Source: a virus
Lineage: Duplodnaviria > Caudoviricetes
Strand: one strand, 5' to 3'
IMG/VR virus record: IMGVR_UViG_3300020596_001154
Span: 848-64,847 of that record
DNA: 64,000 bases
Shown here: piece by piece, positions 36,677 through 52,918 of the stretch
Layout of the letters: each line of letters opens with the position of its first letter
Numbering within the stretch: the stretch's first letter is position 1
The notes under the pieces: generated by a model
What the model saw: only the letters and a program-made list of their open reading frames with translations
Databases searched by the model: none
Told to the model about the DNA's origin: nothing
Position numbers and translations under genes: made by a program

Positions 36677-38019
36677 GCGAAGCAACACAATATTCCTATA
36701 ACGTTCTTTCAGGCTTATTCTCTGATAGAGTAATTAAACTGAAAGCGCAGATCAAGCAGAGCTACTTCACAGACCCAGCTCAAATGCAGCTATACACTTT
36801 CTGCACTGAATTTTATGCGAGTACTAAAACTGTACCAACAGTTCAAGTTGTAGAAGATGCATTTAAAGATAAACTGTGGGACATCCAACAAGAAGTAAAG
36901 ACAATTCTCGGCAAGCTCAATGTACTAATTGATGACGCCCTTTTCGAACACTCACTACAGAATTTCATACAAGACCATAAGATTTCACTCCTGGTCAGTA
37001 ACTCAAAAAAGGTCGCAAATGTACAGTCCATTGGCTTCGACAAAGTGCTAGATGATACTCGTAAAGTCCTGAACACAATTACCGGCATTGAGAATTCAAA
37101 GCTCAATATCTACAACTCTGATATTAAAGATGATGTTGACTCCTTCTTAACGAGAACGTTCGATAAGACTATTGATACTCCGGGCATCCCTGTTAGAAAT
37201 CCCATCATCAACAGAATTACTGGTGGTATGCAGCCGAAGCGCCTGTGGGTTATAGCTGGAGCTTCGGGTGAATGTAAGTCTACCTATCTTAAAAATCTAG
37301 CGTACGATTCTTTAATCGCTGGCGCTAATACTTTCTACTGTACTGTGGAAGAAGACCAAGATCAGGTTCTTAGAGTACTAACTACTATTCACGTCTTTAG
37401 AAAGTATAGTGTTATCCTAGAATCTGCCAAATATAAAACCTACACTGCTGAGGAAGAAAAACTATTCAGACAAGCCCAAGAAGACTTCCTTAGCTTGAGC
37501 AGCAACATAACTATTTTTGAATTGCCGCAACGCTATAGCTACTCTAATTTTGAGAGCATGTTAACGCAACAGAACTCAATCAAAAAGATCGACGCAGTAT
37601 TTCTAGATTACTTACTGCTCCTAAAGCCGGACAGTAAAAGATCTCAGCAGCATGAAGAGAGTGAACAGCTCTACAATGAAGCTAGACAGCTGGCTAATGG
37701 ATTCGACGGGGGCCGTGGTATATTTGTTTGTACCGCCCACCAAGTTAATCGAGAAGGCTGGAAGAAGGCTAAGAAACGTGGTCATTATGTAGCCGAGGAT
37801 TTAGCCAAGACAGTAGCAGCACAACAAGCCCCAGATTTAGTTATTGCTAATTATCTTGATCCTGAGCTTAGATCTCAAAATGAACTCAGACAAAACCTGC
37901 TAAAGAACAGAGGTGGAGAATTCTACAATGAACCTTGGATCTGTCCCATTCAGTTAGAGTGTGGAATTATCAACCCTCCTCTTGATATGGATGACATTCC
38001 AAAAGACCTTAAGCTATGA
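36673..38019 (+). CDS. Replicative DNA helicase (DnaB/gp41 family)
   Basis: GASGECKS Walker A, FLDYLLLL, AHQVNREG, LKNRGG. Confidence 0.85.
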   Translation: MSEATQYSYNVLSGLFSDRVIKLKAQIKQSYFTDPAQMQLYTFCTEFYASTKTVPTVQVVEDAFKDKLWDIQQEVKTILGKLNVLIDDALFEHSLQNFIQDHKISLLVSNSKKVANVQSIGFDKVLDDTRKVLNTITGIENSKLNIYNSDIKDDVDSFLTRTFDKTIDTPGIPVRNPIINRITGGMQPKRLWVIAGASGECKSTYLKNLAYDSLIAGANTFYCTVEEDQDQVLRVLTTIHVFRKYSVILESAKYKTYTAEEEKLFRQAQEDFLSLSSNITIFELPQRYSYSNFESMLTQQNSIKKIDAVFLDYLLLLKPDSKRSQQHEESEQLYNEARQLANGFDGGRGIFVCTAHQVNREGWKKAKKRGHYVAEDLAKTVAAQQAPDLVIANYLDPELRSQNELRQNLLKNRGGEFYNEPWICPIQLECGIINPPLDMDDIPKDLKL

Positions 38020-38141
38020 GTTTACGAGAAATATATAGTAGATTTGAACTAGAGTTTCACGTAGACTTACCCAGTGTATATTTTGGAGTTGTACATAACC
38101 ACTTGGGGTTCAATCAATGGGTTTGGAGTATTCATAGATGA
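38016..38141 (+). CDS. Microprotein family member 1 (41 aa)
   Basis: MSLREIYSRFELEF...WVWSIHR; ATGA overlaps at both ends. Confidence 0.6.
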   Translation: MSLREIYSRFELEFHVDLPSVYFGVVHNHLGFNQWVWSIHR

Positions 38142-38281
38142 GCGTTGACGAAGTATACAAGTGTTTTAACCTGCACTTTTACAGAGCCGATGATAACGCA
38201 GGTGGATGGTGTGGCCTCTATAACTCCGACAAATTCGGACCCAAATTCAGCTATCTCTGGTGGATCGGAGTATTTAAGTGA
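38138..38281 (+). CDS. Microprotein family member 2 (47 aa)
   Basis: MSVDEVYKCFNLHF...GLY...YLWWIGVFK. Confidence 0.6.
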   Translation: MSVDEVYKCFNLHFYRADDNAGGWCGLYNSDKFGPKFSYLWWIGVFK

Positions 38282-38412
38282 TGAGCCTAGAAAGAGTACT
38301 GATTAGCTTTGGCCTAGAGTGCCGAGTCAACTATTTCTGGTTTGGAATACATCGAGTCACCGCACCAGTCTACACAATAATCTGGGATATGTCTTTGAGG
38401 CCAACCAAATGA
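38281..38412 (+). CDS. Microprotein family member 3 (43 aa)
   Basis: MSLERVLISFGLEC...FGIH...IIWDM; ATGA overlap with next gene. Confidence 0.6.
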   Translation: MSLERVLISFGLECRVNYFWFGIHRVTAPVYTIIWDMSLRPTK

Positions 38413-38855
38413 ATGGGCTTAAGTTTACACTACAAGTATTAAAAGACTACGGCTACGAGATCCCGCAGATCAATAGAAACATCTGCTGCCTTTTCCATGA
38501 AGAAACTCGTCCATCAGCCAGACTCTACGAAACAGGAAGCTACCACTGCTGGTCAGGTAAGTGTGGCGCACACTTCTCCGATGGCCTAGGCGCTATCATG
38601 CAGATTGAGGGCTGTCACTACAAAGACGCACTGACAATTGCTGGGAATAGATACGGATTTCAAGTACCTGAAAAAGACATGGTATCTATGAAAGAGTTTT
38701 ATTCACTAGAAGAGGCAATAGTAAAAAAGGTTATCGAACAAAAACCTATGCTATTCTTGTCAGTCTACAAAACTTTAGATACAATCATATCAGAACGTGA
38801 TTTAGATAAAATGAAAAAGCTTTATACAAAACTATCTCAAGGAGAAATTAAGTGA
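38409..38855 (+). CDS. Primase zinc-binding domain (CHC2), stand-alone
   Basis: CCLFHEETRPSARLY..YHCWSGKCG; start moved to ATG 38409. Confidence 0.75.
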   Translation: MNGLKFTLQVLKDYGYEIPQINRNICCLFHEETRPSARLYETGSYHCWSGKCGAHFSDGLGAIMQIEGCHYKDALTIAGNRYGFQVPEKDMVSMKEFYSLEEAIVKKVIEQKPMLFLSVYKTLDTIISERDLDKMKKLYTKLSQGEIK

Positions 38856-40885
38856 GTAAAGAGTGGATGAATTCATGCTCCTTTACTTTAGTAGACTCTA
38901 AAGAGAAGCTCACATACCTAAAGACTCAAATTGAGTCAGCTCAATTCGTAGGATTGGATCTAGAAACTACTGGACTTGACTGGCTATCAGACTGGATTGT
39001 TGGCGTAGCTATTTCTACCGGAGAAGATCAAGGCTACTATATTCCTATCGACCACAAAGATTCTAACAATCTCAGCATTGCTTTGGTAAAACAAGAGTTG
39101 CATGAGATCCTTCTAAAGAAGAAAGTTATCTACTTCAATGCCGCATTCGACCGAAGTATGCTTATCAAAGCAGATATGGATGTTCCTGGAGAAGATGCAA
39201 TGCTTCTTATCTACCACAAAAATACAGAGAAGTATAAGGCAGTCGGTTTAAAGAAAGCCTCTAAAGAGTTCTTGAACCGGGAAATGATCGAGTTCAAAGA
39301 CCTATTCACAGACGAAGAGAAGAAGCGGGTAGACCGAAAAGTTCCGAGCCTAAAGTTGAATAAAAAACCAGCCACAGATTGCCTAGCCTATGCCTGTAGC
39401 GATGCGATTAATACTTGGTTACTTTATAAGAAAGAGCGACATAGACTCCCGCCGAGAATGGAAAGTGTTTATGAGATCGACAATAAATTTATAGACTATA
39501 TCTTAGCCATTCAAGATACAGGCTTCGATGTAGACCTCAAGTATCTTTCAGAATTACGTAAGCGTATTCAAGGTAAGATATCGATGCTGCAAGATCGAAT
39601 GAATGCCGCAGCTGGGTTTGAAGTGAACCCCAATGCCTCCGCATCTATTTGGAAAGCACTGACCTCCTTCGGTGTAGAGCCCACTAAGTTCACGGAGAAA
39701 TCCAATAAGCCAGCCTTTGACGCAGATACTCTAGATGGAGTTGATCACCCGTTTGCTAAAGATGTTAGTGATTACAAGATCTTAACTAAGACCCTTTCAA
39801 CCTACATAGACGCTCTAGAACAAGGTATCCATCCTAAAACAGGACGCTGCCACTCCCTATACCCCTATACTTTTACCTCTACAGGCCGCCTCTCCTCTAC
39901 TGCTATGAAGGATACTAACATGAAGAAGTTAGGTATCAATGCACAGCAGGTAGCTAAGATGATCATATCGGACTCAAAACATGAGTTCTTTCAAGAGTTT
40001 AAGTCTGATTCTATCAGAAAAGCAATCATCCCTCCTAAGGGTTATATCCTAGGCTCCTTAGACTGGTCAGCTGTAGAGCTCCGTATTGCAGCACACTTCT
40101 CCCAAGAACCCATCTGGCTAGAAGGGTTTAGGAAGAATGAAGACTTACATCAGAAGCTAGCAGATACTATTAACAATAAGCTAGGTCTAAACATAGATAG
40201 AACTAAAGCCAAGAATGCCCAGTTTAATATGTTATACGCTTTCTACTGGTCCACCTTTGCTGAGAACCAAGGAATCTCTATGGAAGAGGCTGAGATGCTC
40301 TATAAGGCCTTCTTCAGCACAGTGGTATACTATGACCGCTGGAGAGAGAGCTATAAGAAGCAAGCCTATACCCAGGGCTATTCAGAGACCATGTATGGAC
40401 GTAGGCGTGTAGTGGGTAGCTATGCTGAAGCCAGAGATCTACAGAACTATCTCAAAAACTTAGATAAAAAGTATGAGAACTATAGCCGTGAGGAAAAGAG
40501 TCTGTACCGACAGTACCGTATGAAACGGTCTCAGGGAGACCGGGAAGCTATAAACCATAGGGTCCAAGGGACTTGCCTAGACTTTATGAAGATAGCTGGG
40601 ATTAAGATTTGCAAGGAAATGGCCCGGGAAGGGCTTTGGAGAACAGATGTAATCCCAATGATGGTCGTCCATGATGAAGCCAACTTTGCAGTAAAGGGCG
40701 AGATATTGACTATTGACCGGTCCGGGACGGACCCTTTAGTTATAGTATCTCCTGAAGCCACGGCCAACCTAGCCAAGATCAAGAAGATCATGGAGAACGT
40801 AGCCCCCGCTAACTTTTCTGTACCCCTTGTTTGTGAAGTAGAAGCCGGTTTAAACTGGAAAGAACTCTACAAACTTAAGGTTTAA
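38852..40885 (+). CDS. polA: Family A DNA polymerase with 3'-5' exonuclease
   Basis: DLETTGL, FNAAFD, YACSDA; TGRLSS, DWSAVELRIAAH, RTKAKNAQF..LY, VHDE. Confidence 0.95.
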   Translation: MSKEWMNSCSFTLVDSKEKLTYLKTQIESAQFVGLDLETTGLDWLSDWIVGVAISTGEDQGYYIPIDHKDSNNLSIALVKQELHEILLKKKVIYFNAAFDRSMLIKADMDVPGEDAMLLIYHKNTEKYKAVGLKKASKEFLNREMIEFKDLFTDEEKKRVDRKVPSLKLNKKPATDCLAYACSDAINTWLLYKKERHRLPPRMESVYEIDNKFIDYILAIQDTGFDVDLKYLSELRKRIQGKISMLQDRMNAAAGFEVNPNASASIWKALTSFGVEPTKFTEKSNKPAFDADTLDGVDHPFAKDVSDYKILTKTLSTYIDALEQGIHPKTGRCHSLYPYTFTSTGRLSSTAMKDTNMKKLGINAQQVAKMIISDSKHEFFQEFKSDSIRKAIIPPKGYILGSLDWSAVELRIAAHFSQEPIWLEGFRKNEDLHQKLADTINNKLGLNIDRTKAKNAQFNMLYAFYWSTFAENQGISMEEAEMLYKAFFSTVVYYDRWRESYKKQAYTQGYSETMYGRRRVVGSYAEARDLQNYLKNLDKKYENYSREEKSLYRQYRMKRSQGDREAINHRVQGTCLDFMKIAGIKICKEMAREGLWRTDVIPMMVVHDEANFAVKGEILTIDRSGTDPLVIVSPEATANLAKIKKIMENVAPANFSVPLVCEVEAGLNWKELYKLKV

Positions 40886-40925
40886 TATAGTCTGCTGTAT
40901 TTAACCTTAAATAGACCAGCCCCTG

Positions 40926-40954
40926 TTGACAGTAAAACTAATTATTGATAAGGT
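40926..40954 (+). promoter_or_regulatory. Sigma70-type promoter
   Basis: TTGACA-17 bp-TAAGGT upstream of SSB. Confidence 0.55.
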
Positions 40955-40989
40955 AAACTCAAGAGTTAACCATCCATGAAAGGAACTAT

Positions 40990-41997
40990 ATGACCATACA
41001 ACCCAATTTCTCAGACGGTGAATTAGATCTAGACTCCCTTAATTCGGGAACGAAAAAGAAGTATGCCAAGATTATGTCTGTCCCTGCTGGGAAATCTACC
41101 TTTAGAATTTTACCCGTAACAGGGGGAAAGAAACCGTTTGTAGAGCATTGGTATCAATGGTTCAAGTTTGTAACTACGACTCCGGATGGAGAGTCTAAGA
41201 CTTTCTGGTCTACAGGGAAGACAGCTGAGTTCAATAACCCTATCAGAGTTAAGCTCCAAGCTATTGGAAAACGTAAGTCTGAATTAGAAAAGGCTCATGG
41301 AGAATCCGTTGTTAATAGCAATGGACAGACAAGCTTTAAAGTTAATGAAGAGAAGCTGCCTAAAGATATCCAAACTGAGTATCGAAAGCTTAAAGCAGCT
41401 GAGCGGTATTTGAAGTCTACACGTCACGTGTTCTGTAATGCAGCCACTTTAGACGGAAGCCACACAGTTCTACGTATGCCTAAGACTGCTTATGAGTTAG
41501 TTAAGAATGAAGTTATTCGTTTGAAGAATGAAGGTGAAACTCTTAATGCTTTAAGTCTTTCAGATTCAACTACTGTTGCTGAAGGAAAAACTACACCGAG
41601 TTTTGGTGTATGGTTTGATTTTGATCGTACAGGAGAAGGACTTGGAACTAAGTATGTTATTAAAGTTCGAAAGACTCGCACGAAAGTTGAAATTAATGGA
41701 AAGACTTTGATTGATGAGCAGTTTGACCACACCCCTCTTTCAGATGAAATTCAATCTAACTATGCAAGCATGGTTGTAGATCTAGACACTCTTATCCCTT
41801 CTTACACCAATGAGGAACTCACCGAGATTCTTAAAGGCAACAAGAAAGTTGTGGATTTGAAGAATGGCTATACTCCTAAGGAAACTTCAGGAGCTAGCGA
41901 GCAGGAAGTATCTAGTGGAGATGCGCTGGAAGGACTGTCCTTGGATGATTCTGAAGTATCAGCCTTGCAAGATGATATTCCAACTATCGATCTTTAA
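40990..41997 (+). CDS. Single-stranded DNA-binding protein (gp32-like)
   Basis: FRILP..PFVEH, RTGEGLGTKY, acidic C-terminal tail. Confidence 0.7.
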   Translation: MTIQPNFSDGELDLDSLNSGTKKKYAKIMSVPAGKSTFRILPVTGGKKPFVEHWYQWFKFVTTTPDGESKTFWSTGKTAEFNNPIRVKLQAIGKRKSELEKAHGESVVNSNGQTSFKVNEEKLPKDIQTEYRKLKAAERYLKSTRHVFCNAATLDGSHTVLRMPKTAYELVKNEVIRLKNEGETLNALSLSDSTTVAEGKTTPSFGVWFDFDRTGEGLGTKYVIKVRKTRTKVEINGKTLIDEQFDHTPLSDEIQSNYASMVVDLDTLIPSYTNEELTEILKGNKKVVDLKNGYTPKETSGASEQEVSSGDALEGLSLDDSEVSALQDDIPTIDL

Positions 41998-42032
41998 ACA
42001 GCCAGAGGCTTCATAACTGAAAGTACCTTTAA

Positions 42033-42566
42033 ATGAAATTAGATGAAATTTACGGTGAGTTAATTAATCTTAATGAGATCTCTATACCTCCCGATGCGAA
42101 AGATCGCGGGTATGATTATATCTTTGAGATTGTAAGTCGGATTAGATCAGCACAGGATTTCTGTACAAGGTATTTAGTTGACTGTAATCAGAAGCTTAGC
42201 GCATCTAAAAAGATATTACTTGCACGGCAAAGTGAAATTGATATGTATGTGTTTGAAGCCCTTAAAGTCAGGAAGTATTTAGAGCAGATCAAGTCTTTTC
42301 CAGAGAGAAAAGAAATGATTAAGCTAGAAGCTATTACTTCTATTGACATTAGAGGGGCTGAAGAACAGCATGATGCTCTATCTAATCTGAAGGATGCTCT
42401 TTCTAACACCCTTACTAATCTAAGGACAGCGAAGGAAGAACTCAACATGATTATTGGATTACTTAAACAAGAGTTCAAAGACTCAAACTCGGGAGCTATG
42501 TGGAACAATCCACTACCTTCTAATAACCATGAAAACCCTCTCAAGGACATGGAGTTTTTAGAGTAA
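42033..42566 (+). CDS. Coiled-coil protein, possible UvsY-like mediator
   Basis: Helical; located between SSB and recombination genes. Confidence 0.35.
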   Translation: MKLDEIYGELINLNEISIPPDAKDRGYDYIFEIVSRIRSAQDFCTRYLVDCNQKLSASKKILLARQSEIDMYVFEALKVRKYLEQIKSFPERKEMIKLEAITSIDIRGAEEQHDALSNLKDALSNTLTNLRTAKEELNMIIGLLKQEFKDSNSGAMWNNPLPSNNHENPLKDMEFLE

Positions 42567-43288
42567 TGAACTTCAACGATGAACTAGATTTAGGGACATT
42601 AGATGCAGCTCCAGAGCTTGTACCACAAGCTGTAGTTGTTAACGAGACCTCTAAGGCAGTGAAGCTCGGTGGTAAACTAGGGCACTTTAATATTGTAGGT
42701 ACGCACACCAATTTCAAATCGTTCACTGCTGTAGTCCTAGATGTAAAGACCAAACGTATGTGGTTCATGGGAAATGGGACCTCTTACTTCTGCCGGTCTG
42801 ATGATTCTAATAAACCTATCCAGTCAAGTTCTGAGAACTATAAACAACAGGCTCCGTCCTGCGGGATCTGTCCGAAAGCTAAGTGGAATGGAAGACAGAA
42901 GCCACCAGACTGTCAAAACTCTTTAGACCTAACCCTAGCCACTTTAACAGATGGTGTGCCTAAAGTTCTAGAAGTCTCCTTTAAAAGCTCTGGTATGAAA
43001 GAGATAAAGAATGCTCTAGAATACATGTCAGAGAACGGAGGGCTGACTTTCAGCAAGCTTAAACTAGAGACCCAGATAATTGAAGGGAGAAACTTCGATT
43101 ATTTTACTGTTGCTGTGGGAGAAATTTCCCAATTGACAGATGAAGAGCGAGGGTCTATCCTACCTTTAGTGACTAAGTATTCCCCTAAAACTGAAACCAT
43201 TCATTGGGAACAGCCCGCTGAGATTGAAATCACCAGTGATGAGGTTTCCTCTTTCAGCAGCAACTTAATTGAAATAGATTTGGAGTAA
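42566..43288 (+). CDS. Phage protein with Cys motif (SSB-like OB/Zn family)
   Basis: CRSDD..P..CGICPKAKW..C; acidic tail. Confidence 0.45.
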   Translation: MNFNDELDLGTLDAAPELVPQAVVVNETSKAVKLGGKLGHFNIVGTHTNFKSFTAVVLDVKTKRMWFMGNGTSYFCRSDDSNKPIQSSSENYKQQAPSCGICPKAKWNGRQKPPDCQNSLDLTLATLTDGVPKVLEVSFKSSGMKEIKNALEYMSENGGLTFSKLKLETQIIEGRNFDYFTVAVGEISQLTDEERGSILPLVTKYSPKTETIHWEQPAEIEITSDEVSSFSSNLIEIDLE

Positions 43289-43291
43289 CCA

Positions 43292-43795
43292 GTGTTTAAA
43301 GTTTATCTAGTACAAGTATTTAACTTATTAATAGTAGTGCCAATTATCATAATTACTGGACTAGGTGTGAATGCCTTACTCCCGAATGTAAATCAGGGAA
43401 TTGTATTTGCTTTCACTGTGTTTCTCACAGCTGCCGTATTACTTGTTATCGATGCAGCAACGGCAGAATTTATCAAGTGGAAGTCTATGAGGACACTAAA
43501 GCAATACGGGTTTAAGACTGCTGGGGAAGCAGAGAAAGTTATGAGAGACTACACGGACTATCAGACACAGCTCTATCTCCTCCCACCTGAAGCTAAGAGA
43601 GAGATTATAGATAAGAGTAATAGAACTGAGCAGCTCATTAAAGATTATGAAGGAAGGCCCCCGTTCTTTTTCCAGAACTTAGGGATGACTAAAGAAGAAG
43701 CTATTGAACAAGTTAAGAATGATTGCACGACTTGGCTAAAGCAGAGAGGATATCCAGTATGGGAATTTCCCCTAAAAAACCAGGACAAGTCGTAA
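43292..43795 (+). CDS. Membrane protein (2 TM)
   Basis: Two N-terminal hydrophobic helices. Confidence 0.55.
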   Translation: MFKVYLVQVFNLLIVVPIIIITGLGVNALLPNVNQGIVFAFTVFLTAAVLLVIDAATAEFIKWKSMRTLKQYGFKTAGEAEKVMRDYTDYQTQLYLLPPEAKREIIDKSNRTEQLIKDYEGRPPFFFQNLGMTKEEAIEQVKNDCTTWLKQRGYPVWEFPLKNQDKS

Positions 43796-44478
43796 TAGGG
43801 TTAGACCTTTCTACTAAGCCGGGTTACGCAATCCTAGCTGACGGAGAAAGACTTGCCTCTGGGACTTCGAGACCCCCAAGCCCCCTGTCTAGTATGAAGG
43901 GTGAATACCCATTTACTTACGTAGGTTTTACCCAGTCTGTTGTTGAAAACTTACTGTACAAAGTCATGACCCATATTCAGTTTTCTAAGTTACAGAATTC
44001 TGATGTAGATGTTATTGTGATTGAAGAGACAACTGCGAGTTCTCAAAACTACTCTCAAAAAATCTTAGAGTTTATTCACTATGAGTTTTTGAAGACAGTC
44101 ACCGCTATATTCCCCGAAGCTAAAGTGGTCTATATACGTGATTTAGTTTGGAAAAAGGCCAATGATGCGCATATGAACGCTGAAGAAAAGAAAAATAATT
44201 TAAAGCTTAGTCGACTAAAGAAAAAGAAGGCGGAAGAAAATCCAAATCTGAAGAAGATTATAGTCAAGAAAGACACTGACGGAACCCCAATTAAAAAAGT
44301 ATCCAGACAAGATGCTTACATAAGAAAAGCAAATGAAATATTCAGCTTAGATTTGAAATTAGAAAATGAGGACGAGGCAGCAGCGTTATTATTAGCGAGA
44401 GCTTATCTCACAGGCGCCCCCCATTGCAATGGGCGACTTGATGGAGGAGTATATGTCAAAAAACCTGACGGGATTTAA
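43759..44478 (+). CDS. RuvC-like Holliday junction resolvase
   Basis: VIGLDLSTKPGYA, VIVIEE, WKK, EDEAAALLLA; start set at ATG 43759. Confidence 0.7.
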   Translation: MGISPKKPGQVVIGLDLSTKPGYAILADGERLASGTSRPPSPLSSMKGEYPFTYVGFTQSVVENLLYKVMTHIQFSKLQNSDVDVIVIEETTASSQNYSQKILEFIHYEFLKTVTAIFPEAKVVYIRDLVWKKANDAHMNAEEKKNNLKLSRLKKKKAEENPNLKKIIVKKDTDGTPIKKVSRQDAYIRKANEIFSLDLKLENEDEAAALLLARAYLTGAPHCNGRLDGGVYVKKPDGI

Positions 44479-44596
44479 AATTAATACTTGGACATTTGAG
44501 TCTAAGTTCAACAAGTTACTCTGCAATGTTAGATGTTCTTGCGGACTTGTGTGGCAGCGCCAGGATAAAAACATTTTATATGGTAAATCAAACTGA
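44453..44596 (+). pseudogene. Truncated HNH/AP2-type homing endonuclease N-terminus
   Basis: GGAGGAG RBS then MSKNLTGFKINTWT...CNVRCSCG...NILYGKSN*. Confidence 0.55.
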
Positions 44597-44888
44597 AAGG
44601 AAAAACAATGCAAAAATATCAAGGCTCAAAGCAAAGAAAAAAGCAACAAGCCCGGAAAAGAAACGGATTGTCATCAGGAAAGATAATGATGGCAACCCCA
44701 TCAAAAGGGTTACTAGGCAAGATGCGTACATTCGTACTGCGAATGAGATCTTTGGCCTCGCGCTTACTCGCGAAAATGAGGACGAAACTGTGACGCTCTT
44801 AGTAGCAAAAGCTTATCTAATGGGCGCTCCTACCTACAACGGACTAATTACAGGAGGCCTGCTGCCCAAAAAAGGAGAAACAAAGTGA
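44580..44888 (+). pseudogene. Diverged duplicate of the 3' part of the RuvC-like gene
   Basis: KDNDGNPIKRVTRQDAYIRTANEIF..ENEDE..AYLMGAP vs KDTDGTPIKKVSRQDAYIRKANEIF..ENEDE..AYLTGAP; lacks N-terminal catalytic motifs. Confidence 0.75.
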
Positions 44889-45304
44889 GTGATGATATGT
44901 CCATGTCAGATACTTTTAAGACTTTGGGTCTTCATGTGCCTGCTCAGACTACTTCAAACGTAGACCTTGTGAAGCGGGAAAGAGATCTAGCTGTAGAAAA
45001 AATAGCTGAGAAATTAGAGAGTGTGAAGCTACAGATCGACAGACAGTTTAATCATCTAGAATCACAATTGAATCAGAAACTAGCTGATGTAGGCATGAAC
45101 GTAATGTCAGCAGAGATGGAAAACTTGAAAATGTTTATGCAAAATATAAATGTAAATGTTTACAGTGGCCCACAGTATTACAGCAAGATTAACGGGCTTT
45201 ATGATTTCACTCCGATGAGTGACGACATTATATATCTGAAAAAAACTGTGAATATTTTAGCTAGAGTAATTCTCAAATACCATGGACAGGGTACAGGATA
45301 TTAA
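44885..45304 (+). CDS. Hypothetical coiled-coil protein
   Basis: GTG start with AAGGAG RBS. Confidence 0.55.
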   Translation: MSDDMSMSDTFKTLGLHVPAQTTSNVDLVKRERDLAVEKIAEKLESVKLQIDRQFNHLESQLNQKLADVGMNVMSAEMENLKMFMQNINVNVYSGPQYYSKINGLYDFTPMSDDIIYLKKTVNILARVILKYHGQGTGY

Positions 45305-45306
45305 TT

Positions 45307-46407
45307 ATGGCAAAGAAACCTAAAGACAAAAATGAAAAGCGTCCTGAGAATACAGGACTAGCAGCTTTCAGAGAATACAATAAGAAAGTTGCTTCTGATG
45401 TGATTGAGGAAGAGTTAGAAGCAAAGACTTCCCAAGATGTAATCTCCTCTGGCTCCATCATAATTGACCATATTTTAGGTGTAGGTGGTTTCGTGAAAGG
45501 AACTATCCATGAAATTGCAGGAGAGCAGCACTCAGGTAAATCGACCATCTGTTTACAGACAGCACGAAATTCTCAGAGAGAAGGTAACTCTGTAGCCTAC
45601 CTTAATACAGAACAATCTCTAGATAAAAAATATGCCCTGTCCTTAGGTGTGAACATGGAAGACAAGAGTCTTTGGTATTATTCGACCCACAATAGTTATG
45701 AAGGCTTAGCCACAACGATTAACGGCCTTATAAATGTTGGAGATATCCGAACAATTATTATAGACTCAGTCACAGGATTCGAGAAGAAAGAAGTTCTAGA
45801 TGAAGACACATCTCATGGAGCTACCCAGATAGGGACTGCAGCAAGATTCTGGAGCGACTACCTTAAAAAGCTAGCCTCACTAGCCCACAAAAATAATGTT
45901 TTGATCTTAGCTACAAACCAAACCAGAGTAGCCAATATTGGAGTCTACGGCTCTAACCCCATTAAAGATACCACAGGCGGAAATGCTTTGAAGTACTGGA
46001 AGACAACATCTTTGCATCTTCAGGGATCTAAAGCCAAGGCTGAAGACAGTGTGGATGACTTCGGAGATAAATATTACCGGGTTAACGAAGACTACACAAA
46101 GGTTGTAGCCAAGGTAGACAAGAACAAGTGGGCACCATCCTATAAATCTGCCATCGGAAAGATTGTACCGTACTTAGGCTATGATAACTATGAAGCTTTA
46201 TTTAAACTAGCTACTACCAAAGGACTGGTTCAAATAGCAGGAGCTTGGATATCTTATAGAAATGAAGAAGACCCAGACCACTTTAAAGTCCAGGGCCGCC
46301 CAGCTGCTCAAGAAAGAATTAAGAATAGTCCCTCGATACTTAAGAAACTTATAGAGGATGTAGGCCTTGCAAACCCCGAAAATTACTTCCCGAACTCTAA
46401 GTTTTAG
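45307..46407 (+). CDS. recA: RecA/UvsX recombinase
   Basis: SGSIIIDHILGVGGF, GEQHSGKST, IIIDSV, TNQTR, TTGGNALKY. Confidence 0.9.
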   Translation: MAKKPKDKNEKRPENTGLAAFREYNKKVASDVIEEELEAKTSQDVISSGSIIIDHILGVGGFVKGTIHEIAGEQHSGKSTICLQTARNSQREGNSVAYLNTEQSLDKKYALSLGVNMEDKSLWYYSTHNSYEGLATTINGLINVGDIRTIIIDSVTGFEKKEVLDEDTSHGATQIGTAARFWSDYLKKLASLAHKNNVLILATNQTRVANIGVYGSNPIKDTTGGNALKYWKTTSLHLQGSKAKAEDSVDDFGDKYYRVNEDYTKVVAKVDKNKWAPSYKSAIGKIVPYLGYDNYEALFKLATTKGLVQIAGAWISYRNEEDPDHFKVQGRPAAQERIKNSPSILKKLIEDVGLANPENYFPNSKF

Positions 46408-46418
46408 AGAGGAACATT

Positions 46419-46835
46419 ATGTCCGACTGGAAGGAATCTCAAAAGCTAACTTGGAGGCAACTCTTTACCAAGCTAAAGCACACAATGGAATATATTGCTG
46501 TGTCGTTCGAGACAGTAAAAGACGAATTCTTTTCAGTTATCAGGGAATCTGGCACGATACTAGTCTCTGTTTCCGGTTTTGGATGGAGTTTATTAGTAAA
46601 ACCACGTAAGAATTTAGCTGAAACCCTCCTCATCATGACCCCGGCTGTAGTTCTTACAGCTGGGGTTTTTTACCTTAAGTTTTGGATATTTTTAATAGCT
46701 ACCCTCATGTATTTAGCTGTCTTTTTTATCCTCATATCTATTAACCTCTATGATCTGCCCGACCGCCTTGTCAAGTATGGCTACCTATGGTATGTATTAG
46801 GTATAGTGTCTTTGATTTTTAGTTTCTTCTTGTAG
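46419..46835 (+). CDS. Membrane protein
   Basis: Three hydrophobic segments. Confidence 0.55.
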   Translation: MSDWKESQKLTWRQLFTKLKHTMEYIAVSFETVKDEFFSVIRESGTILVSVSGFGWSLLVKPRKNLAETLLIMTPAVVLTAGVFYLKFWIFLIATLMYLAVFFILISINLYDLPDRLVKYGYLWYVLGIVSLIFSFFL

Positions 46836-46845
46836 GAGATCAGTT

Positions 46846-47055
46846 GTGGAAATGCCCGAAGGTTGGAAAAGATTCGATATTGCTACAGACAAAGATTCTG
46901 GTGAATGCTATAAACAATATGATTGCGAAATAGTACGAGATCTCATGAAAGAAATGGCAGAAGCACTAGAGGCTATTGAATTGTGGCTCGTAGAGAAATA
47001 CATTAACAATTATGAAGACTTAAAGATTAAAGAGAATGGGGATGTGTATGCCTAG
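46846..47055 (+). CDS. Hypothetical protein
   Basis: AGGAG RBS. Confidence 0.5.
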   Translation: MEMPEGWKRFDIATDKDSGECYKQYDCEIVRDLMKEMAEALEAIELWLVEKYINNYEDLKIKENGDVYA

Positions 47056-47284
47056 TTATACTTATTTATGCGCTGACTGCCGTGTACAGAGCCAGCTTAT
47101 GCATGGACTGTCGAGTAAGACCGTCCCGGTCTGCCCTAAATGTGGGTCAGAATGCCTAAAAAGGGTGCTTAGAGGCTCTGGATTTCACATTGCCGGCCCT
47201 GGTGTCTATCGAGAGGGATTCTCGCAGTATAGGGCTCCTCTGACTACCCCAGACGGGGAACTATTTAAGGGAGATAAGAAGTGA
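47048..47284 (+). CDS. FmdB-type zinc-ribbon protein
   Basis: MPSYTYLCADC..CPKCGS..LKRV..GPGVY. Confidence 0.75.
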   Translation: MPSYTYLCADCRVQSQLMHGLSSKTVPVCPKCGSECLKRVLRGSGFHIAGPGVYREGFSQYRAPLTTPDGELFKGDKK

Positions 47285-47463
47285 AAAAGAAAAAATTAAC
47301 GTATAAAATTGAGCCCAAACCACAGACATTTATCACACGACTAATTAGAAAGATCATTAAATATGTAATTAAAAGGGGGTGGGCCGGGGAATTGAAAATA
47401 CCTAGCGAGTTCTTCGAGAGTGTGAGTCTAAAAGGTCTTCTTAATCCTGGAAGGAAACTGTAA
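47281..47463 (+). CDS. Hypothetical basic protein
   Basis: Overlapping start, RBS. Confidence 0.45.
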   Translation: MKKKKLTYKIEPKPQTFITRLIRKIIKYVIKRGWAGELKIPSEFFESVSLKGLLNPGRKL

Positions 47464-47724
47464 ATGAAAGAACTAGATACGTTACAAGCCCGCTATGCAA
47501 AGGTTGCAGACCGAATCAAAGAGATTGAGTTGGAAAATGCAATGAAGAAGAAGAAGCTTCAAGAAAACCGAGATGAAATCGTCAAGTTAGGCTTCGACCC
47601 GGACAAGTTAGACACCCAAATCCCAGCCATCAAACAAAAAATCCAAGCACGTTTACAGGAGATTGAAGTTCAGGTAGATTTACTATATGTGGAGCTTGGG
47701 TTAGGCAATGAAAAACAAGGATGA
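47464..47724 (+). CDS. Small coiled-coil protein
   Basis: Heptad pattern with LGFDPDKL hinge. Confidence 0.5.
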   Translation: MKELDTLQARYAKVADRIKEIELENAMKKKKLQENRDEIVKLGFDPDKLDTQIPAIKQKIQARLQEIEVQVDLLYVELGLGNEKQG

Positions 47725-48541
47725 TCTAGAAAATTATCTCGTCTACGGGATTCATATTCAGAATCGAAAGATATTCTTTGGATCTCCCATGACTTCAGAA
47801 GATGCTGATGATGACTTCGGATCTTGTTCTGTAGCCATGGCCATCAGAGCCATTGACCTAATGGTCAGCATGAACTCCAAACCTATTGAATTACATATAA
47901 CAAGTTCCGGTGGCCTCGTATACCACATGATGGGCCTTAAAGATAAGATGCTGGAGAGCCCAGTGAAGTTTATATTTTACGGACGAGGTCTTATATCTTC
48001 CGCTGCTACATGGATTCTTGCGTGTTCAGATGAACGTTACTTAAGTCAAGACTGTACTGTCATGATTCATAACGGGGGTACTCACCGAGAGAATGAGTCT
48101 GGTACTACACGAATGACAGACCAGACCATTGATACTGAAGAAGATGAGCGACTCCAAGACAGACTGAACCAAATTTTCAGCGACAATAGTAGAATGCCTA
48201 AAAGCTTTTGGGATACCATAGTTCAACGGGATTGTTATCTGACAGCTGAAGAGGCTGTTATGCTGGGTTTAGCGGATGAAATCATTCCCTATAAAAAGAG
48301 ACTAAACCTAAGACAAAAACGACAGTCACTATTAAAGGCCCACCCCACTAAAAGGCAGATGGAATTACTGGCCAAGAAATTACTTGCGCGAGTTCGAATG
48401 AACCACATGGCTAAGGATGTGCAAGTACAACTTCCTGTGGAAGCAGCTGAGGAACTTCCAGCATACGATAGATCAGAATTAGAACTAGAGAAACTTAATG
48501 GAGATGGTAATGGAATCAAAACTGAACCTACTGCAGAGTAA
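47708..48541 (+). CDS. ClpP-like serine protease
   Basis: RKIFF, PIELHITSSGG, GLISSAATWIL, VMIH, DCYLTAEEAVMLGLADEI. Confidence 0.8.
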   Translation: MKNKDDLENYLVYGIHIQNRKIFFGSPMTSEDADDDFGSCSVAMAIRAIDLMVSMNSKPIELHITSSGGLVYHMMGLKDKMLESPVKFIFYGRGLISSAATWILACSDERYLSQDCTVMIHNGGTHRENESGTTRMTDQTIDTEEDERLQDRLNQIFSDNSRMPKSFWDTIVQRDCYLTAEEAVMLGLADEIIPYKKRLNLRQKRQSLLKAHPTKRQMELLAKKLLARVRMNHMAKDVQVQLPVEAAEELPAYDRSELELEKLNGDGNGIKTEPTAE

Positions 48542-49118
48542 AATCTCGACCAAGTTAAGTGAGAAGAAGATTCTCTCCGATCAACTCTCTGACATAGATC
48601 GAGAGATTAAGAACCTATCTACCCGCACTATCAACTACAATAAGGCCGCAGCATTCTGTGATGTACTCATTGAGAAAATGAATGCCGCTTCAGTAGAAGA
48701 CATCGAGAAGCTAGTCACAGAAACTTTGCAGTTTATTTTTGAGAGACCTTATGAATTCACCATGAAGCCTCATGTAAGCCGGGGATCTGTTACGTATAAC
48801 TTCGGTTTAAAGATTGATGATAGGGAAATAGACAATATTATGGATAGCGAAGGGGGGGGCATTGTCTCAGTCATCTCGATTATCATGAGGATTGTTACTA
48901 TCTTAATCACAGACCCTCCCATGAATAGATTACTAGTGCTAGACGAAAGTCTCGGGATGCTATCAGCCCAGTACATTGATAACGCTGCTCGATTCATAAA
49001 GCAATTGGGAAGTAAATTAGGATTTAAAATAGTCCTCGTGACGCACCAAGAAGAGTTTAAGACCCACGCTGATGTGGTCTATGAAGTTACAAAGGGCGAA
49101 GTGAGGCTTACCAAATGA
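48498..49118 (+). CDS. SbcC/Rad50 (gp46-like) C-terminal half
   Basis: Coiled-coil, signature SEGGG, Walker B LVLDE, H-loop VTHQ; no Walker A. Confidence 0.8.
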   Translation: MEMVMESKLNLLQSKISTKLSEKKILSDQLSDIDREIKNLSTRTINYNKAAAFCDVLIEKMNAASVEDIEKLVTETLQFIFERPYEFTMKPHVSRGSVTYNFGLKIDDREIDNIMDSEGGGIVSVISIIMRIVTILITDPPMNRLLVLDESLGMLSAQYIDNAARFIKQLGSKLGFKIVLVTHQEEFKTHADVVYEVTKGEVRLTK

Positions 49119-49273
49119 GCTTGAGTGGAATACTAGGCGCGTTTAACCTCGATCTTGAGTCTGACTCGACTCCTGTAAGCTGTAAGGCGGGGCCGGCCCA
49201 CTACTTGAGTCTGTGGGAAATAACTGACAATAACTACAAGAGACTAGTTTGGCTTTTACATGGCACCAATTAA
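49115..49273 (+). CDS. Microprotein family member 4 (52 aa)
   Basis: MSLSGILGAFNLDL...LVWLLHGTN; ATGA overlap. Confidence 0.55.
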   Translation: MSLSGILGAFNLDLESDSTPVSCKAGPAHYLSLWEITDNNYKRLVWLLHGTN

Positions 49274-50024
49274 AAAAGTAATTCTCAGTTACTCTAAAGT
49301 ATCGACGTACAAGTGCCCTCGTAAGTACATGTATCAATATGTACAACGCATGCCTAAAAAAGACAATGGTCGATTCTCATTACCTGGTCGCGCAATACAA
49401 AAGCTCTTCGAATTATTTGTAAACTCGAAACAATTTAGCAATGGGTCTAAATGGCTTTATGAAAATGTGGCTGTTGTTTTCTACAATGAGTACAAACGGT
49501 ATGAAGCCACTACAACTTTCTTAAAGGGTGAAGAGTATGAGGATGTTCTTCATGAAGTAGTTGACATGATTCCTAATTGCTACGATTTATTTATTAAAAA
49601 GAAATGGAACTACGGGAAGATCTCTAGTGAGATTCGATTTCAAACAGACCTCACTGGGTCTATATCTCTTATGGGGGATATGGACTTTCTGATTGAGACT
49701 AAAACTGAAACAATTTTAATGGACTTTAAGTCAACGGCCAAAGGTCTAAGTGGTATAGACAAAGAACAGCTTCTGATCTACAACCACCTTTATAAATCTA
49801 AGTACGGAAAGTATCCCGATCAAACCTATTTCTTTTTATGTCGTGATAATCAACTAGTCAGAGTGACTATTAAAGACGATGAGATGGAAGCCCTGATTAG
49901 TAAGCTTGTTAAGGTAGGCGAGGGTATCCAGAATGAGGACTACCATAAGGTCCCAAGCAAAGAGAACTGCGGCTGGTGTCCGTACAAGAAGTCTTGCTTT
50001 GCACCGGAGAAACCACCATGGTAA
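49260..50024 (+). CDS. PD-(D/E)XK (RecB/Cas4-like) exonuclease
   Basis: LSYSK..CPRKY, GDMD..DFKS, QLLIY, CGWCPYKKSC. Confidence 0.85.
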   Translation: MAPIKKVILSYSKVSTYKCPRKYMYQYVQRMPKKDNGRFSLPGRAIQKLFELFVNSKQFSNGSKWLYENVAVVFYNEYKRYEATTTFLKGEEYEDVLHEVVDMIPNCYDLFIKKKWNYGKISSEIRFQTDLTGSISLMGDMDFLIETKTETILMDFKSTAKGLSGIDKEQLLIYNHLYKSKYGKYPDQTYFFLCRDNQLVRVTIKDDEMEALISKLVKVGEGIQNEDYHKVPSKENCGWCPYKKSCFAPEKPPW

Positions 50025-50119
50025 ATGAAGTGCTCACAAAATTCGGTCTGTATTATATTGACTATGGTCAAGATTACCTTCAAGTCGGAGTGCTCCTCAG
50101 GTTTACTAAAAAAATTTAG
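50018..50119 (+). CDS. Microprotein family member 5 (33 aa, possibly truncated)
   Basis: MVNEVLTKFGLYY...VGVL; overlaps nuclease stop. Confidence 0.45.
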   Translation: MVNEVLTKFGLYYIDYGQDYLQVGVLLRFTKKI

Positions 50120-50171
50120 ACTTTGAAATCCATCAAATTTTTCCTCGCCCAATTTTTTTCAAAAAGGTTTT

Positions 50172-51278
50172 TTATACATTCTCAATAGATTTTTGAGTTT
50201 GTTCTGGCAATACCTGACCACACTCAGTGCAAGTGCTTGATAAATCATGTATTTTATGCTGTAATTCTAGATATTCCTTCTTTATAACAGAAACATCATC
50301 ATACTGAACGTTTTTGATCAATACCCTGTACTTCTCTAGGTCAGCCATAAGCTCAAGAGCCCTCATCAACTTAGAAGTATCTGGAATATCCTGTACTACC
50401 CTAGACCCAACTGCCTCCAGCAGCTTTATTAACCTACTAGGATCTTCTGGCCTCTTATAGTCTGGCGTTAGCTGGCAATACTCAGACAAGATTATCAATT
50501 TACTAGGGTTTTCCGGTCTACTAGGTAAAGGTGTTAGCTGGCAATACTCAGACAAGATTATCAATTTACTAGGGTTTTCCGGTCTACTAGGTAAAGGTGT
50601 TAGCTTATACTGTCGATTACTCTCTATAAGCTCTTCCACTCTACTTAAGTCCTTTGATAGCTTCTCAATCTGTGATCGACTCTCTAGGATGCTCTGTAAG
50701 CGACTATTCAACCCTTCAGGGTCTCCTAGATCCACTAACTTAGTTTGGATAGCCTCACGGTCAATCTGGCGAATAGAGAGTGTAGATGCCATCTCTGAGC
50801 TATCCTTGGCTATTCGAGACTTAGCTGATTTAACCTTCCCTGCCTGGGATAGAGAGGAAAGCAGCTTAGAGACTTCAGAATCACTAAAAGATACAAGAAA
50901 GGGTGAATCCCATTGCTGTGAAATGTTTACGTAATATTTCTTTTTATCTACCTCAATAGGCTGGAAGCCTAGGTCTGCAATTTGCTGCAGTTGATCTCTG
51001 CCGATTGCCCGAAGCTCGGGGCCGCCATTAATTGAGTATCCTGTGCTTGAATCTCGTAAGTACTTGATTTTATTGCCGTCATCCAGCTCTAGTTCGATTT
51101 CCAGGCTTTTGGCACCATGTCTTATAAAGCTTTTAGAGGGGATATTATAAAGTAGGGTCTTAAAGGCACGTACAATAGCAGTCTTTCCTGATGAAGAGTG
51201 ACCGACTATCACAGTAAAGGGCTGTATGTCTAATACAGACTCTTTGTGGCTCTGAAAGTTTTTAAGTGTTAGTTTCAT
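50172..51278 (-). CDS. SbcC/Rad50 (gp46-like) N-terminal half
   Basis: LKNFQSH, Walker A GHSSSGKT, Q-loop, coiled-coil, zinc hook CTECG at C-terminus. Confidence 0.85.
   Translation of the reverse strand: MKLTLKNFQSHKESVLDIQPFTVIVGHSSSGKTAIVRAFKTLLYNIPSKSFIRHGAKSLEIELELDDGNKIKYLRDSSTGYSINGGPELRAIGRDQLQQIADLGFQPIEVDKKKYYVNISQQWDSPFLVSFSDSEVSKLLSSLSQAGKVKSAKSRIAKDSSEMASTLSIRQIDREAIQTKLVDLGDPEGLNSRLQSILESRSQIEKLSKDLSRVEELIESNRQYKLTPLPSRPENPSKLIILSEYCQLTPLPSRPENPSKLIILSEYCQLTPDYKRPEDPSRLIKLLEAVGSRVVQDIPDTSKLMRALELMADLEKYRVLIKNVQYDDVSVIKKEYLELQHKIHDLSSTCTECGQVLPEQTQKSIENV
50467..50604. repeat. Perfect 66-bp tandem duplication in SbcC-N
   Basis: Encodes LTPLPSRPENPSKLIILSEYCQ twice. Confidence 0.9.
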
Positions 51279-51415
51279 ACTAAATTAATATAGTGCCCAA
51301 TTATCCAAATATAGCTAGCAGAGTTTTCATCGTATAAGCCAAGACTTCTGGAGTCTTTTAGTTTCCAAGTTAAGTATTCTAAGTTAAAAATACGAAGTGT
51401 TTCAACTACCGACAT
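51275..51415 (-). CDS. Microprotein family member 6 (46 aa)
   Basis: MSVVETLRIFNLEY...GLY...YIWIIG; ATGA overlap with SbcC-N. Confidence 0.6.
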   Translation of the reverse strand: MSVVETLRIFNLEYLTWKLKDSRSLGLYDENSASYIWIIGHYINLV

Positions 51416-52352
51416 AAGACTCCAATATCTCTCGTACTTCAGGCTCAAGATCAGACTCTTTTATAAGAGTATTTATGTCTAGCTGTGTAGAATCCCGCAT
51501 GGATTGAACTCGTTCTAAGAAACCTTTAAGCTCGTCTTTTTTCTCCGATTTAATTTCCCTTTTCCAGTCTTTAAAGATGTCCGATTTTATTTGTATGGGT
51601 AAATACTCCGTTGAAATAGTGGATTTGCCGGCTGAATCCCATGCCACTGTTATAAGAGTAATCTGAGGTACTCGGTCAATTTCTTCAGACGCTGTGTTTG
51701 TACGTCTGAAAGCTCCTGGCTGAACAAAAATCTGCCCTTTACTGTTTATCATCTGCGGGAGACTAGTGTGCTCATGCCCATTACAGAATAGATTTACGTT
51801 AGATTGTGTAAATTCCTCTATGCCTAGTCTGTCTTCACTGTAGAACTTGCCTGACTTTAAACCTATCATCATATGTATGAGCCCTATAAGAGGCGCATCT
51901 TGTTCTGGGTTTATCGCAGAAAATCGACTCATATCAGTAGTGTACGAGTGGTCGAATCCCGCTATTCCGACTCTATTCTGGCCGTTTTGGGTTGATACAT
52001 ACTGTGGAATATTAGTTGCTCTAGTTAAAATCCCGGATTCAAACATAAACTTTAAAGGGTGATTGTCGATAGAGTTAAGGGAGGTATCGTGGTTTCCTGC
52101 GATTGCAAAAACCTGTAGACCAAGCAGTTTGATATGTTGTGCCGCTTTTATGGAAGTTTCATAAGAAATTTTGGTTCCATGCTTTGAGTCGAATAAATCT
52201 CCCGAAATTAAAACCGCAGCTACATTATACTGATCACAGTATTTCCTGACTTGCTGGAATTTGCCAGAAAGGGTCTCCATGATATCGTCTACCCGGTAAC
52301 TGTTAGAACCCGTCCAGTGTATATCAGTCAAATGTACGAAACTTATTTTCAT
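51402..52352 (-). CDS. SbcD/Mre11 (gp47-like) nuclease
   Basis: TDIH, GDLFD, GNHD, GHEH, QPGAF.R. Confidence 0.85.
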   Translation of the reverse strand: MKISFVHLTDIHWTGSNSYRVDDIMETLSGKFQQVRKYCDQYNVAAVLISGDLFDSKHGTKISYETSIKAAQHIKLLGLQVFAIAGNHDTSLNSIDNHPLKFMFESGILTRATNIPQYVSTQNGQNRVGIAGFDHSYTTDMSRFSAINPEQDAPLIGLIHMMIGLKSGKFYSEDRLGIEEFTQSNVNLFCNGHEHTSLPQMINSKGQIFVQPGAFRRTNTASEEIDRVPQITLITVAWDSAGKSTISTEYLPIQIKSDIFKDWKREIKSEKKDELKGFLERVQSMRDSTQLDINTLIKESDLEPEVREILESYVGS

Positions 52353-52918
52353 AACAAACCCTCTATAAACGAGTTTAACTGAGACTTTAGGGATTCGTCA
52401 AGACCCTTTTGAAGCATTCCGTTCGGGTCTTTTTCACCCTTTAGCCGAAAGTTGTAGATATTGTATCTTAGGCCAAATTTCTCTAGCACTTTCTCAGCTG
52501 CTTTCTGACCCGCTTGGTCGTTATCAAAGAACAGTACAAATTTATCAGTATATCTGCTGAAAATCTTTAAGTGGCTCTCATTCAACCGAGCGGAAAGAAC
52601 TGAAAAGGATAGGAATCCCAATTTCTCTAGTGATAACGTGTCGATAGGCGCTTCTGTAATTACAATAGGCTTACCAAAGAAGGCTTGTTTTAGGTTCTCT
52701 GCATTATAAATAGCGGGGCTCTCAGCTTCTTTTAAAAGGTATATGTACTTAGGGTCTTGGCCTGGACGGTACTCTAACTGCCCTCTGAAATGACTGTATT
52801 CATCCTTCAAGGGGATGCTGATACAGAATCTGGACGAATGGTAGACGATCTCATGCCTTTTTAGCTGGTCTTCGTCTAGTTTTCGGTCGTTTATTAGATG
52901 TAGAAGCTGTTCGTTCAT
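52349..52918 (-). CDS. Primase Toprim catalytic domain, stand-alone
   Basis: PKY, ITEAPID, FDNDQAGQKA, KDPN; no Zn-finger. Confidence 0.8.
   Translation of the reverse strand: MNEQLLHLINDRKLDEDQLKRHEIVYHSSRFCISIPLKDEYSHFRGQLEYRPGQDPKYIYLLKEAESPAIYNAENLKQAFFGKPIVITEAPIDTLSLEKLGFLSFSVLSARLNESHLKIFSRYTDKFVLFFDNDQAGQKAAEKVLEKFGLRYNIYNFRLKGEKDPNGMLQKGLDESLKSQLNSFIEGLL

Follow-up and report, generated by a model that had tools for sequence, protein, structure and literature searches.

The stretch of DNA analysed here (the window, 64,000 bases) is part of a 64,847-base, single-contig virus record of an uncultured phage (IMG/VR record IMGVR_UViG_3300020596_001154). Six small open reading frames (ORFs), designated m1 to m6 and encoding proteins of 33–52 amino acids (aa), are found at junctions between its DNA replication and recombination genes (Table 1). 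These ORFs had been listed in a first-pass annotation as a hidden family of related microproteins, and all six sequences quoted there are present at the positions shown in Table 1. A base-by-base check confirmed that the ORFs overlap neighbouring stop or start codons and that they lie on both strands. The neighbours named in that annotation (helicase, primase, the two halves of SbcC, a nuclease and SbcD) were confirmed by Pfam and PHROGs, namely a DnaB_C helicase, a CHC2 zinc finger, a PDDEXK_1 nuclease, a Metallophos SbcD, an AAA_23/SbcC-like protein as the N-terminal half of SbcC and, as its C-terminal half, an ATPase identified by PHROGs that also matches SMC_N weakly.

The 389-nt gap between the helicase and primase genes is exactly tiled by m1, m2 and m3, which occupy three different frames and are joined by start/stop overlaps. 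An alternative GTG start of m3 at 38278 would give a protein of 44 aa, and the m3 stop codon overlaps the ATG of the primase zinc-finger gene at 38409. The other three ORFs likewise occupy gaps of 123–147 nt. At its 3' end, m4 shares 14 nt with the beginning of the PD-(D/E)XK nuclease gene; m5 is the final gene ahead of the convergent gene for the N-terminal half of SbcC; and m6 lies between the genes for SbcD and the N-terminal half of SbcC, its stop codon overlapping the ATG of the latter at 51278 (ATGA). All six ORFs end at a stop codon, the last residues of m1 to m6 being R, K, K, N, I and V. GGAG or GAGG sequences are located 4–10 nt upstream of the starts of five ORFs, the exception being m1; that of m2 (GGAG, 9 nt upstream) resides within the m1 coding sequence. 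Five of the ORFs (m1, m2, m4, m5 and m6) have been called as genes in public collections (m5 in JGI/IMG), and the 43-aa form of m3 is absent from the public protein collection.

Table 1. Positions in the window of the six small ORFs and of the split genes and protease gene of the same region.
Feature	Position	Strand	Length (aa)	Remarks
m1	38016-38141	+	41	First of tandem trio; ATG overlaps helicase TGA (ATGA)
m2	38138-38281	+	47	ATGA overlap with m1 stop
m3	38281-38412	+	43	TGATG overlap with m2 stop
m4	49115-49273	+	52	ATGA overlap with stop of SbcC C-terminal half
m5	50018-50119	+	33	Start overlaps nuclease stop by 7 nt
m6	51275-51415	-	46	Start overlaps SbcD 3' end by 14 nt
Primase CHC2 zinc-finger protein	38409-38855	+	148	PF01807, E 1.8e-6
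Primase Toprim protein	52349-52918	-	189	PF13155, E 1.2e-15
SbcC N-terminal half	50172-51278	-		AAA_23
SbcC C-terminal half	48498-49118	+		phrog_15167 ATPase, weak SMC_N match
ClpP-family protease	47708-48541			PF00574, E 6.6e-20; PHROG 'head maturation protease'

Similarity among the six proteins

Each member in turn was left out of a profile hidden Markov model (HMM) trained on the other five, and the model was searched against the 1714 six-frame, stop-to-stop segments of the 64.8-kb genome. With full-length sequences, the left-out member ranked first in five of the six cases, with E-values of 8.2e-5 (m1), 3.5e-5 (m2), 0.55 (m3), 0.42 (m4) and 2.5e-3 (m6), and m5 ranked second (E 1.6). When only the first 15 residues were used, all six members ranked first, with E-values from 3.5e-4 to 0.27 (0.038, 0.27 and 0.074 for m3, m4 and m5, respectively); with residues 16 to the end, no member was recovered, the ranks lying between 19 and 824. 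Local alignment scores, taken as sums of pairs, were also compared with those of 1000 composition-preserving shuffles, giving z-scores of 7.9 for the full-length sequences, 15.3 for residues 1–15 and 8.8 for residues 3–15, none of which was reached by any shuffle (0/1000 each). The N-terminal similarity is clearly above that of the shuffled controls. No seventh member was identified in the 64,847-base record, and the N-terminal motif is not present in the other translationally coupled small ORFs of the window.

The only invariant columns of the alignment are M1, F10 and L12. Ser2 of m1–m4 is partly a by-product of the gene arrangement, because the ATGA overlap restricts codon 2 to AGN, which encodes Ser or Arg only, and removal of the first two residues led to the loss of m3 and m4 (ranks 95 and 66). 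The Ser2 codon of m6 is TCG and hence is not forced in this manner, so that the 'MS' start included in the first-pass consensus is freely kept in m6 and partly imposed in m1–m4. The remainder of that consensus also held in part: its N-terminal motif exceeds chance, and its central G and terminal W strands are weak (z 2.1–2.9). For residues 16 to the end, exclusion of m5 gave a z-score of 2.9 (5/1000 shuffles), and the signal in this portion is driven mainly by one clear case, the m2–m6 pair (z 4.1), which shares 35% identity, m6 being the closest paralog of m2. Judging from these alignments, the family is real, with the N-terminal motif as its conserved part, and the C-terminal 'strands' represent a loose pattern.

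The shortened m5 lacks both Ser2 and the middle strand and is a marginal member. In the m5 frame, upstream of the ATG (49976–50017, overlapping the 3' end of the nuclease gene), a second, partial echo of the motif was observed, (V)SVQEVLLC, read from a GTG; the HMM gave two domains on the m5 segment.

No DNA repeats, shared or flanking, were found among the six ORFs, in agreement with the earlier remark that DNA-level similarity was not obvious. Pairwise nucleotide identity in codons 3–15 was 0.47 at the first codon position, 0.56 at the second and 0.37 at the third, and different codons were used in 43 of the 72 codon pairs that specify identical residues. The presence of identical residues with differing codons, together with the lack of DNA repeats, suggests that the ORFs are old duplicates kept by selection on the peptide. 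The proposal of a diversified paralog family thus gains from both the significant N-terminal similarity and the synonymous codon divergence. Under the codon usage of the phage itself, the proposed frame scored better than the other two same-strand frames in five ORFs and was the best of all six frames in five ORFs, the signal being strongest in m6 (+14.6 bits). Trp accounts for 4.2% of the residues of the six proteins and 0.8% of those of the long proteins of the phage.

Population variation was surveyed in four further DNA runs, in which the only material was low-depth contigs >99% identical to the window. In total, 22 differences were found over 13.6 kb, 3 in m1/m2 and 19 elsewhere (10 non-synonymous and 9 synonymous). 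All three single-nucleotide polymorphisms (SNPs) in m1/m2 are non-synonymous (V16A, S20R and S38N) and lie outside the motif, and all five in the primase, polymerase and UvsX genes are synonymous. The SNPs at 38073 and 38250 are supported by one low-depth contig only; m1 V16A is also known as a separate protein record (P0018), and an m4 variant from another assembly, S4G (P0003), affects a variable position of the motif. These small numbers are compatible with rapid change of the hairpin or just with weak constraint. Presence/absence joints at the region were not seen in the four metagenome runs.

Predicted fold and searches for relatives

AlphaFold2 models of m1 and m2, which are 26% identical, share an alpha-beta-beta-beta topology. 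In the m2 model, a helix (residues 3–9) is followed by strands at residues 12–16, 22–31 and 34–44 (mean predicted local distance difference test score (pLDDT) 87.7, predicted template modelling score (pTM) 0.59), and the m1 model contains a helix at residues 3–9 and strands at residues 12–17, 22–29 and 32–40 (pLDDT 78.7, pTM 0.42). The models put the conserved motif, which comprises the helix and strand 1, in the folded core. The mini-fold of one helix plus three strands proposed in the first-pass annotation is supported by these two models. In structure comparisons, the best E-values obtained by Foldseek were 0.91 against the PDB and 0.25 against BFVD, and VIA-align against 48,161 chains gave a best Z of 3.9 (root-mean-square deviation 2.4 Å over 43 residues), no chain having a Z of at least 5. 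Many of the weak VIA-align rows were single beta-propeller blades, with a best Z of 3.9.

None of the six ORFs matched Pfam or PADLOC, a library of models of defence-system proteins, at E-values up to 10, and NCBIfam gave nothing usable. Two PHROGs, phrog_10047 and phrog_4907, matched one ORF each within this genome (m1, E 0.012, and m5, E 0.004, respectively) and were dismissed as non-specific since control genomes matched them too. Among the seven candidates of a word-index search of 5.8 billion proteins, only the four called proteins of the phage itself were found, and none of 557 candidates for fused longer forms scored an E-value of 10 or better. An HMM scan of 1.84 billion representative proteins returned nine rows, four being the phage's own proteins; the other five are long proteins with 4–50 matching stretches, and the four of these that were inspected are all internally repetitive. 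By tblastn against 50,697 phage records, m6 had no match and m2 had six chance-level rows (E 3–10). A degenerate two-motif DNA pattern that recovers both tandem pairs in the window, and matched none of 100 shuffles, gave one false match in IMG/VR, inside a repeat protein, and 19 unrelated matches in GTDB contigs. The HMM search for relatives advised in the first-pass annotation thus returned no family member besides the phage's own proteins, and its statement that the family was not recognisable was borne out, as no known family, fold or homolog matches.

Several candidate relationships were considered and rejected. Contigs of metagenome-assembled genomes of Clostridia (L012, 1990–2303, and L022) encode a 201-aa protein that has no Pfam match and ends in ...TMSLDEILKAFNLGDKAKN; the 3' end of its gene recurs three times in DNA copies of 123 nt. 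The likeness of this protein to the motif was partly forced by the search pattern and was taken as chance. Alignment of the six proteins with the neighbouring CHC2 zinc ribbon of primase (PF01807, 38409–38855) by hhalign gave a probability of 0.1, and the six-member alignment contains no conserved Cys/His column and hence no zinc ligands. The C-terminal fragment of a split intein has a conserved His-Asn at its end and continues in the same frame into an extein whose first residue is Cys, Ser or Thr; all six ORFs end at a stop codon with the next gene in another frame, and none has a His-Asn end. A resemblance to C-type lectins ('WIGL ... WxW') was traced to two lectin rows (E 0.51 and 5.6) retrieved from PDB sequences by the six-member profile, and neither m2 alone nor m6 alone recovers them. 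C-type lectin domains consist of 110–130 aa, compared with the 33–52 aa of these microproteins.

Possible roles and competing explanations

It is very likely that m1, m2 and m6, and probably also m3 and m4, are real genes and paralogs that constitute a previously undescribed family. The fuller reading, in which all six ORFs are real genes of a lineage-restricted paralog family and encode folded modulators of ~45 residues coupled to replication genes, is preferred here as a tentative one, possible rather than probable. In such proteins, an N-terminal amphipathic helix would pack on an antiparallel sheet of three strands. The conserved core would consist of the helix together with the first strand, with the putative consensus MS[LV]xE[VI]LxxF[NG]LE, and the hairpin of the second and third strands would be free to vary and would set binding specificity. 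The family would most likely have arisen through local amplification, which gave the tandem trio m1-m2-m3, after which its members diverged and spread to other sites of the replication/recombination module. If the ORFs are translated, translational coupling to the upstream gene would result in co-production with the helicase, primase, SbcCD and nuclease. The likeliest role would be that of small protein-binding modulators, acting either against the host or its defences or as regulators of DNA-metabolism enzymes; such a role as an anti-host or regulatory binder is suggested by analogy with the following systems. For the inhibitors of host defences proposed in the first-pass annotation, the analogy is to the small anti-toxin genes of T4 only.

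In phage T4, genes 61.2, 61.4 and 61.5 are flanked by genes 61 (primase) and 41 (helicase). The genes 61.2 (adfA), 61.4 (tifA, 85 aa) and 61.5 (dmd) are reported to encode small inhibitors of host toxins, and escape from defence is reported via tandem segmental amplification of tifA, whose copy number rises under selection (PMC9391042). These early anti-toxin genes are similar to m1–m6 in being small and placed among replication genes (PMC9391042). The m1-m2-m3 array between the helicase and primase genes looks, by analogy, like an old and diverged amplification of the tifA type. However, no sequence or fold relation was found between the two sets, the T4 genes are not mutual paralogs, and m1–m6 are smaller (33–52 aa versus 85 aa for TifA) and present as six copies at four sites. 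The second parallel is p56 of phage phi29, which is reported to be a 56-aa protein with three antiparallel strands and one helical region that blocks uracil-DNA glycosylase of the host (PMC3239192). This early protein is similar to the modelled m1 and m2 in being tiny and composed of three strands and a helix, and it binds a host DNA-repair enzyme (PMC3239192). Unlike m1–m6, which are aromatic-rich and not markedly acidic, p56 is encoded by a single gene and is an acidic, obligately dimeric mimic of DNA; it did not appear in the top 50 rows of the Foldseek comparison with the PDB.

Several points weigh against the preferred reading. The input for AlphaFold2 was a six-sequence alignment of the paralogs themselves. 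The proteins match no anti-defence or other family, and the function is proposed by analogy alone. No homolog was found outside this phage among proteins, phage records, IMG/VR and GTDB contigs, cross-genome conservation being the strongest test for small genes. The codon-frame scores of m1 to m6 are +4.0, -0.9, +2.1, +5.4, +8.0 and +14.6 bits, a signal much weaker than that of long genes, of which 46-codon pieces score 16.3 +/- 7.3 bits; m2 scores lower than one opposite-strand frame. The C-terminal two thirds of the six members are weakly similar (residues 16 to the end, z 2.1, 32/1000 shuffles). The three non-synonymous SNPs out of three in m1/m2 could equally indicate that there is no constraint.

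For now, m1–m6 are best described as a well-supported orphan family rather than as a mechanism, and they are confined so far to one uncultured phage lineage. Genes of <50 codons are routinely overlooked, and it is difficult to show that they are real; here, the six diverged paralogs provide internal evidence. If real, the family would represent a new fold of ~45 residues and a natural example of phage small-gene expansion by amplification and divergence beside the replication machinery. Its practical value hinges on finding the partners. It is doubtful, but conceivable, that the proteins form a set of interchangeable mini-binders generated by an amplification-and-divergence 'accordion' inside the replication module, each combining the fixed core with a fast-evolving hairpin and tuned to a different host DNA-repair or defence protein or to a neighbouring phage enzyme. 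If true, this would add to the new fold a new class of phage counter-defence proteins about as small as folded domains can be.

The short conserved N-terminus could also be a tag. The internal proteins of T-even phages are described as otherwise diverse small proteins that have in common only a short conserved N-terminal capsid-targeting sequence (PMC3012670). The proteins m1–m6 are similar to those of the T4 type in carrying a short conserved N-terminus on otherwise diverse sequences, and this sharp split in conservation (z 15.3 for the N-terminus versus 2.1 for the rest), together with the presence of a ClpP-type protease gene (Table 1) in the same module, would be accounted for if the 13–15 N-terminal residues were a capsid-targeting sequence, a protease/adaptor tag or a leader and the remainder were a payload. 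This explanation is unlikely: in the AlphaFold2 models the motif is part of the fold, inside its core, with no free tail; it occurs in no larger protein of the record; the cargo left after its removal would be only 20–38 residues; and the genes reside in the replication module, away from the head genes. T4 internal proteins are cleaved according to the rule L/I-x-E, after the Glu at the tag end; position 13 in m1 to m6 is E, H, E, D, Y and E, Glu being found in only three of the six, and a conserved x-L-E cleavage site may be lacking. The T4 anti-toxins, p56 and the T-even internal proteins are parallels, and none of them is a homolog.

It is quite unlikely that the ORFs are coupling spacers, which would pass ribosomes on and set the helicase, primase, SbcC and SbcD ratios, with the peptides mattering little. 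Their arrangement is suited to this purpose in that all six start on the stop of the upstream gene, the ends of m3, m4 and m6 coincide with or overlap the next gene's start, and the last codons of m1 and m2 include the GGAG of the next gene; the weak constraint on the C-terminal parts is also in line with it. However, a spacer requires neither an amino acid motif kept through synonymous change (43 of 72 codon pairs differing) nor a shared fold that is predicted with confidence, no gene lies downstream of m5 for it to be coupled to, and the motif is missing from the window's other coupled small ORFs.

Co-assembly of the paralogs into a hetero-oligomer, for example a ring of blade-like units forming one structural or DNA-handling particle, is distinctly improbable. 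The three tandem coupled members would favour equal amounts, the three-strand sheet has free edges, and the weak structure matches were often single beta-propeller blades (best Z 3.9), but these matches are far below the level that the tool itself regards as meaningful (0 of 48,161 chains with a Z of at least 5), and the six genes are distributed to four separate sites on two strands.

The suggestion of the first-pass annotation that this is a self-spreading mini-gene, copying itself selfishly into gene junctions, now appears highly improbable. Copies are indeed present at four different junctions on both strands, and the splitting of the primase and SbcC genes into halves on opposite strands indicates that the region has been rearranged; however, proteins of 33–52 residues with no enzyme motif cannot move themselves, neither terminal or flanking repeats nor similarity at the DNA level were found among the copies, the four runs showed no polymorphism between filled and empty sites, and no copy was found in any other genome searched. 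That the ORFs are not genes but chance open frames in short intergenic spacers, with a motif picked by eye, is scarcely credible: although homologs elsewhere are lacking, codon usage gives a weak signal, none of m3, m4 and m5 is significant individually and 'MS' is partly ATGA-forced, the searches of the whole six-frame genome recovered m1, m2 and m6 at E-values of 8.2e-5, 3.5e-5 and 2.5e-3, residues 3–15 alone gave a z-score of 8.8, the gaps are exactly tiled by ORFs with Shine-Dalgarno sites, and the predicted fold is confident and common to members.

Other features of the region and the phage

The halves of the primase gene lie on opposite strands, 13.5 kb apart. The block containing the Toprim gene, the SbcD gene, m6 and the gene for the N-terminal half of SbcC looks like an inverted piece whose ends cut through the primase and SbcC genes. 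Within the N-terminal half of SbcC (window 50426–50605), a 66-nt tandem duplication repeats the peptide LTPLPSRPENPSKLIILSEYCQ. The ClpP-family gene belongs to the replication/recombination module, and a distance of 45 kb separates it from the genes for the scaffold and major head proteins.

The virus record is classified as a provirus in IMG/VR, and its completeness is 50% according to the CheckV estimate. It contains genes for a scaffold protein, a major head protein, a tail sheath, three tube paralogs and baseplate proteins; these genes show that the phage is contractile-tailed. Its DNA polymerase shares <28% identity with any entry among the 50,697 phage records, and a 16-kb region had no match to these records by megablast. 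Rfam and tRNA scans of the window detected no RNA genes, and the numbers of predicted promoters and terminators were at the level of shuffled sequences (41 versus 36.7 +/- 6.8 and 16 versus 12.9 +/- 4.3, respectively).

Metagenome runs from microbial mats and a single run from a hypersaline lake contain near-identical DNA, and no RNA run was among those listed. Another contig of the same phage (L001) was compared over 2.17 kb and differs at one single base, by an indel at 38646, and searches of IMG/VR, JGI metagenomes and GTDB contigs with the helicase and UvsX found nothing besides this contig. The protein collection includes relatives of the helicase that are 74, 60 and ~45% identical (P0006, P0007 and P0008) and are encoded on contigs of ~100 kb. 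In two runs (X7 and X10), contigs match only 35 bases of the window (38814–38848, at the primase/polymerase junction) and then continue into unlike sequence, which shows that the habitat also contains a diverged relative of the phage.

At window positions 34677–35903, a 96-nt unit is repeated in 12.9 tandem copies within a 436-aa ORF consisting of PBS-lyase-type HEAT repeats (HEAT_PBS, E 5.3e-63), and the copy structure differs between this contig and L001. This gene and the mat habitat hint that the host may be a cyanobacterium. Finally, the helicase ends in ...DMDDIPKDLKL (37980–38019) and a 335-aa ORF following the polymerase gene ends in ...LQDDIPTIDL (41960–41997). These acidic 'DDIP' tails, which are reminiscent of the C-terminal tails of SSB, may be shared docking peptides.

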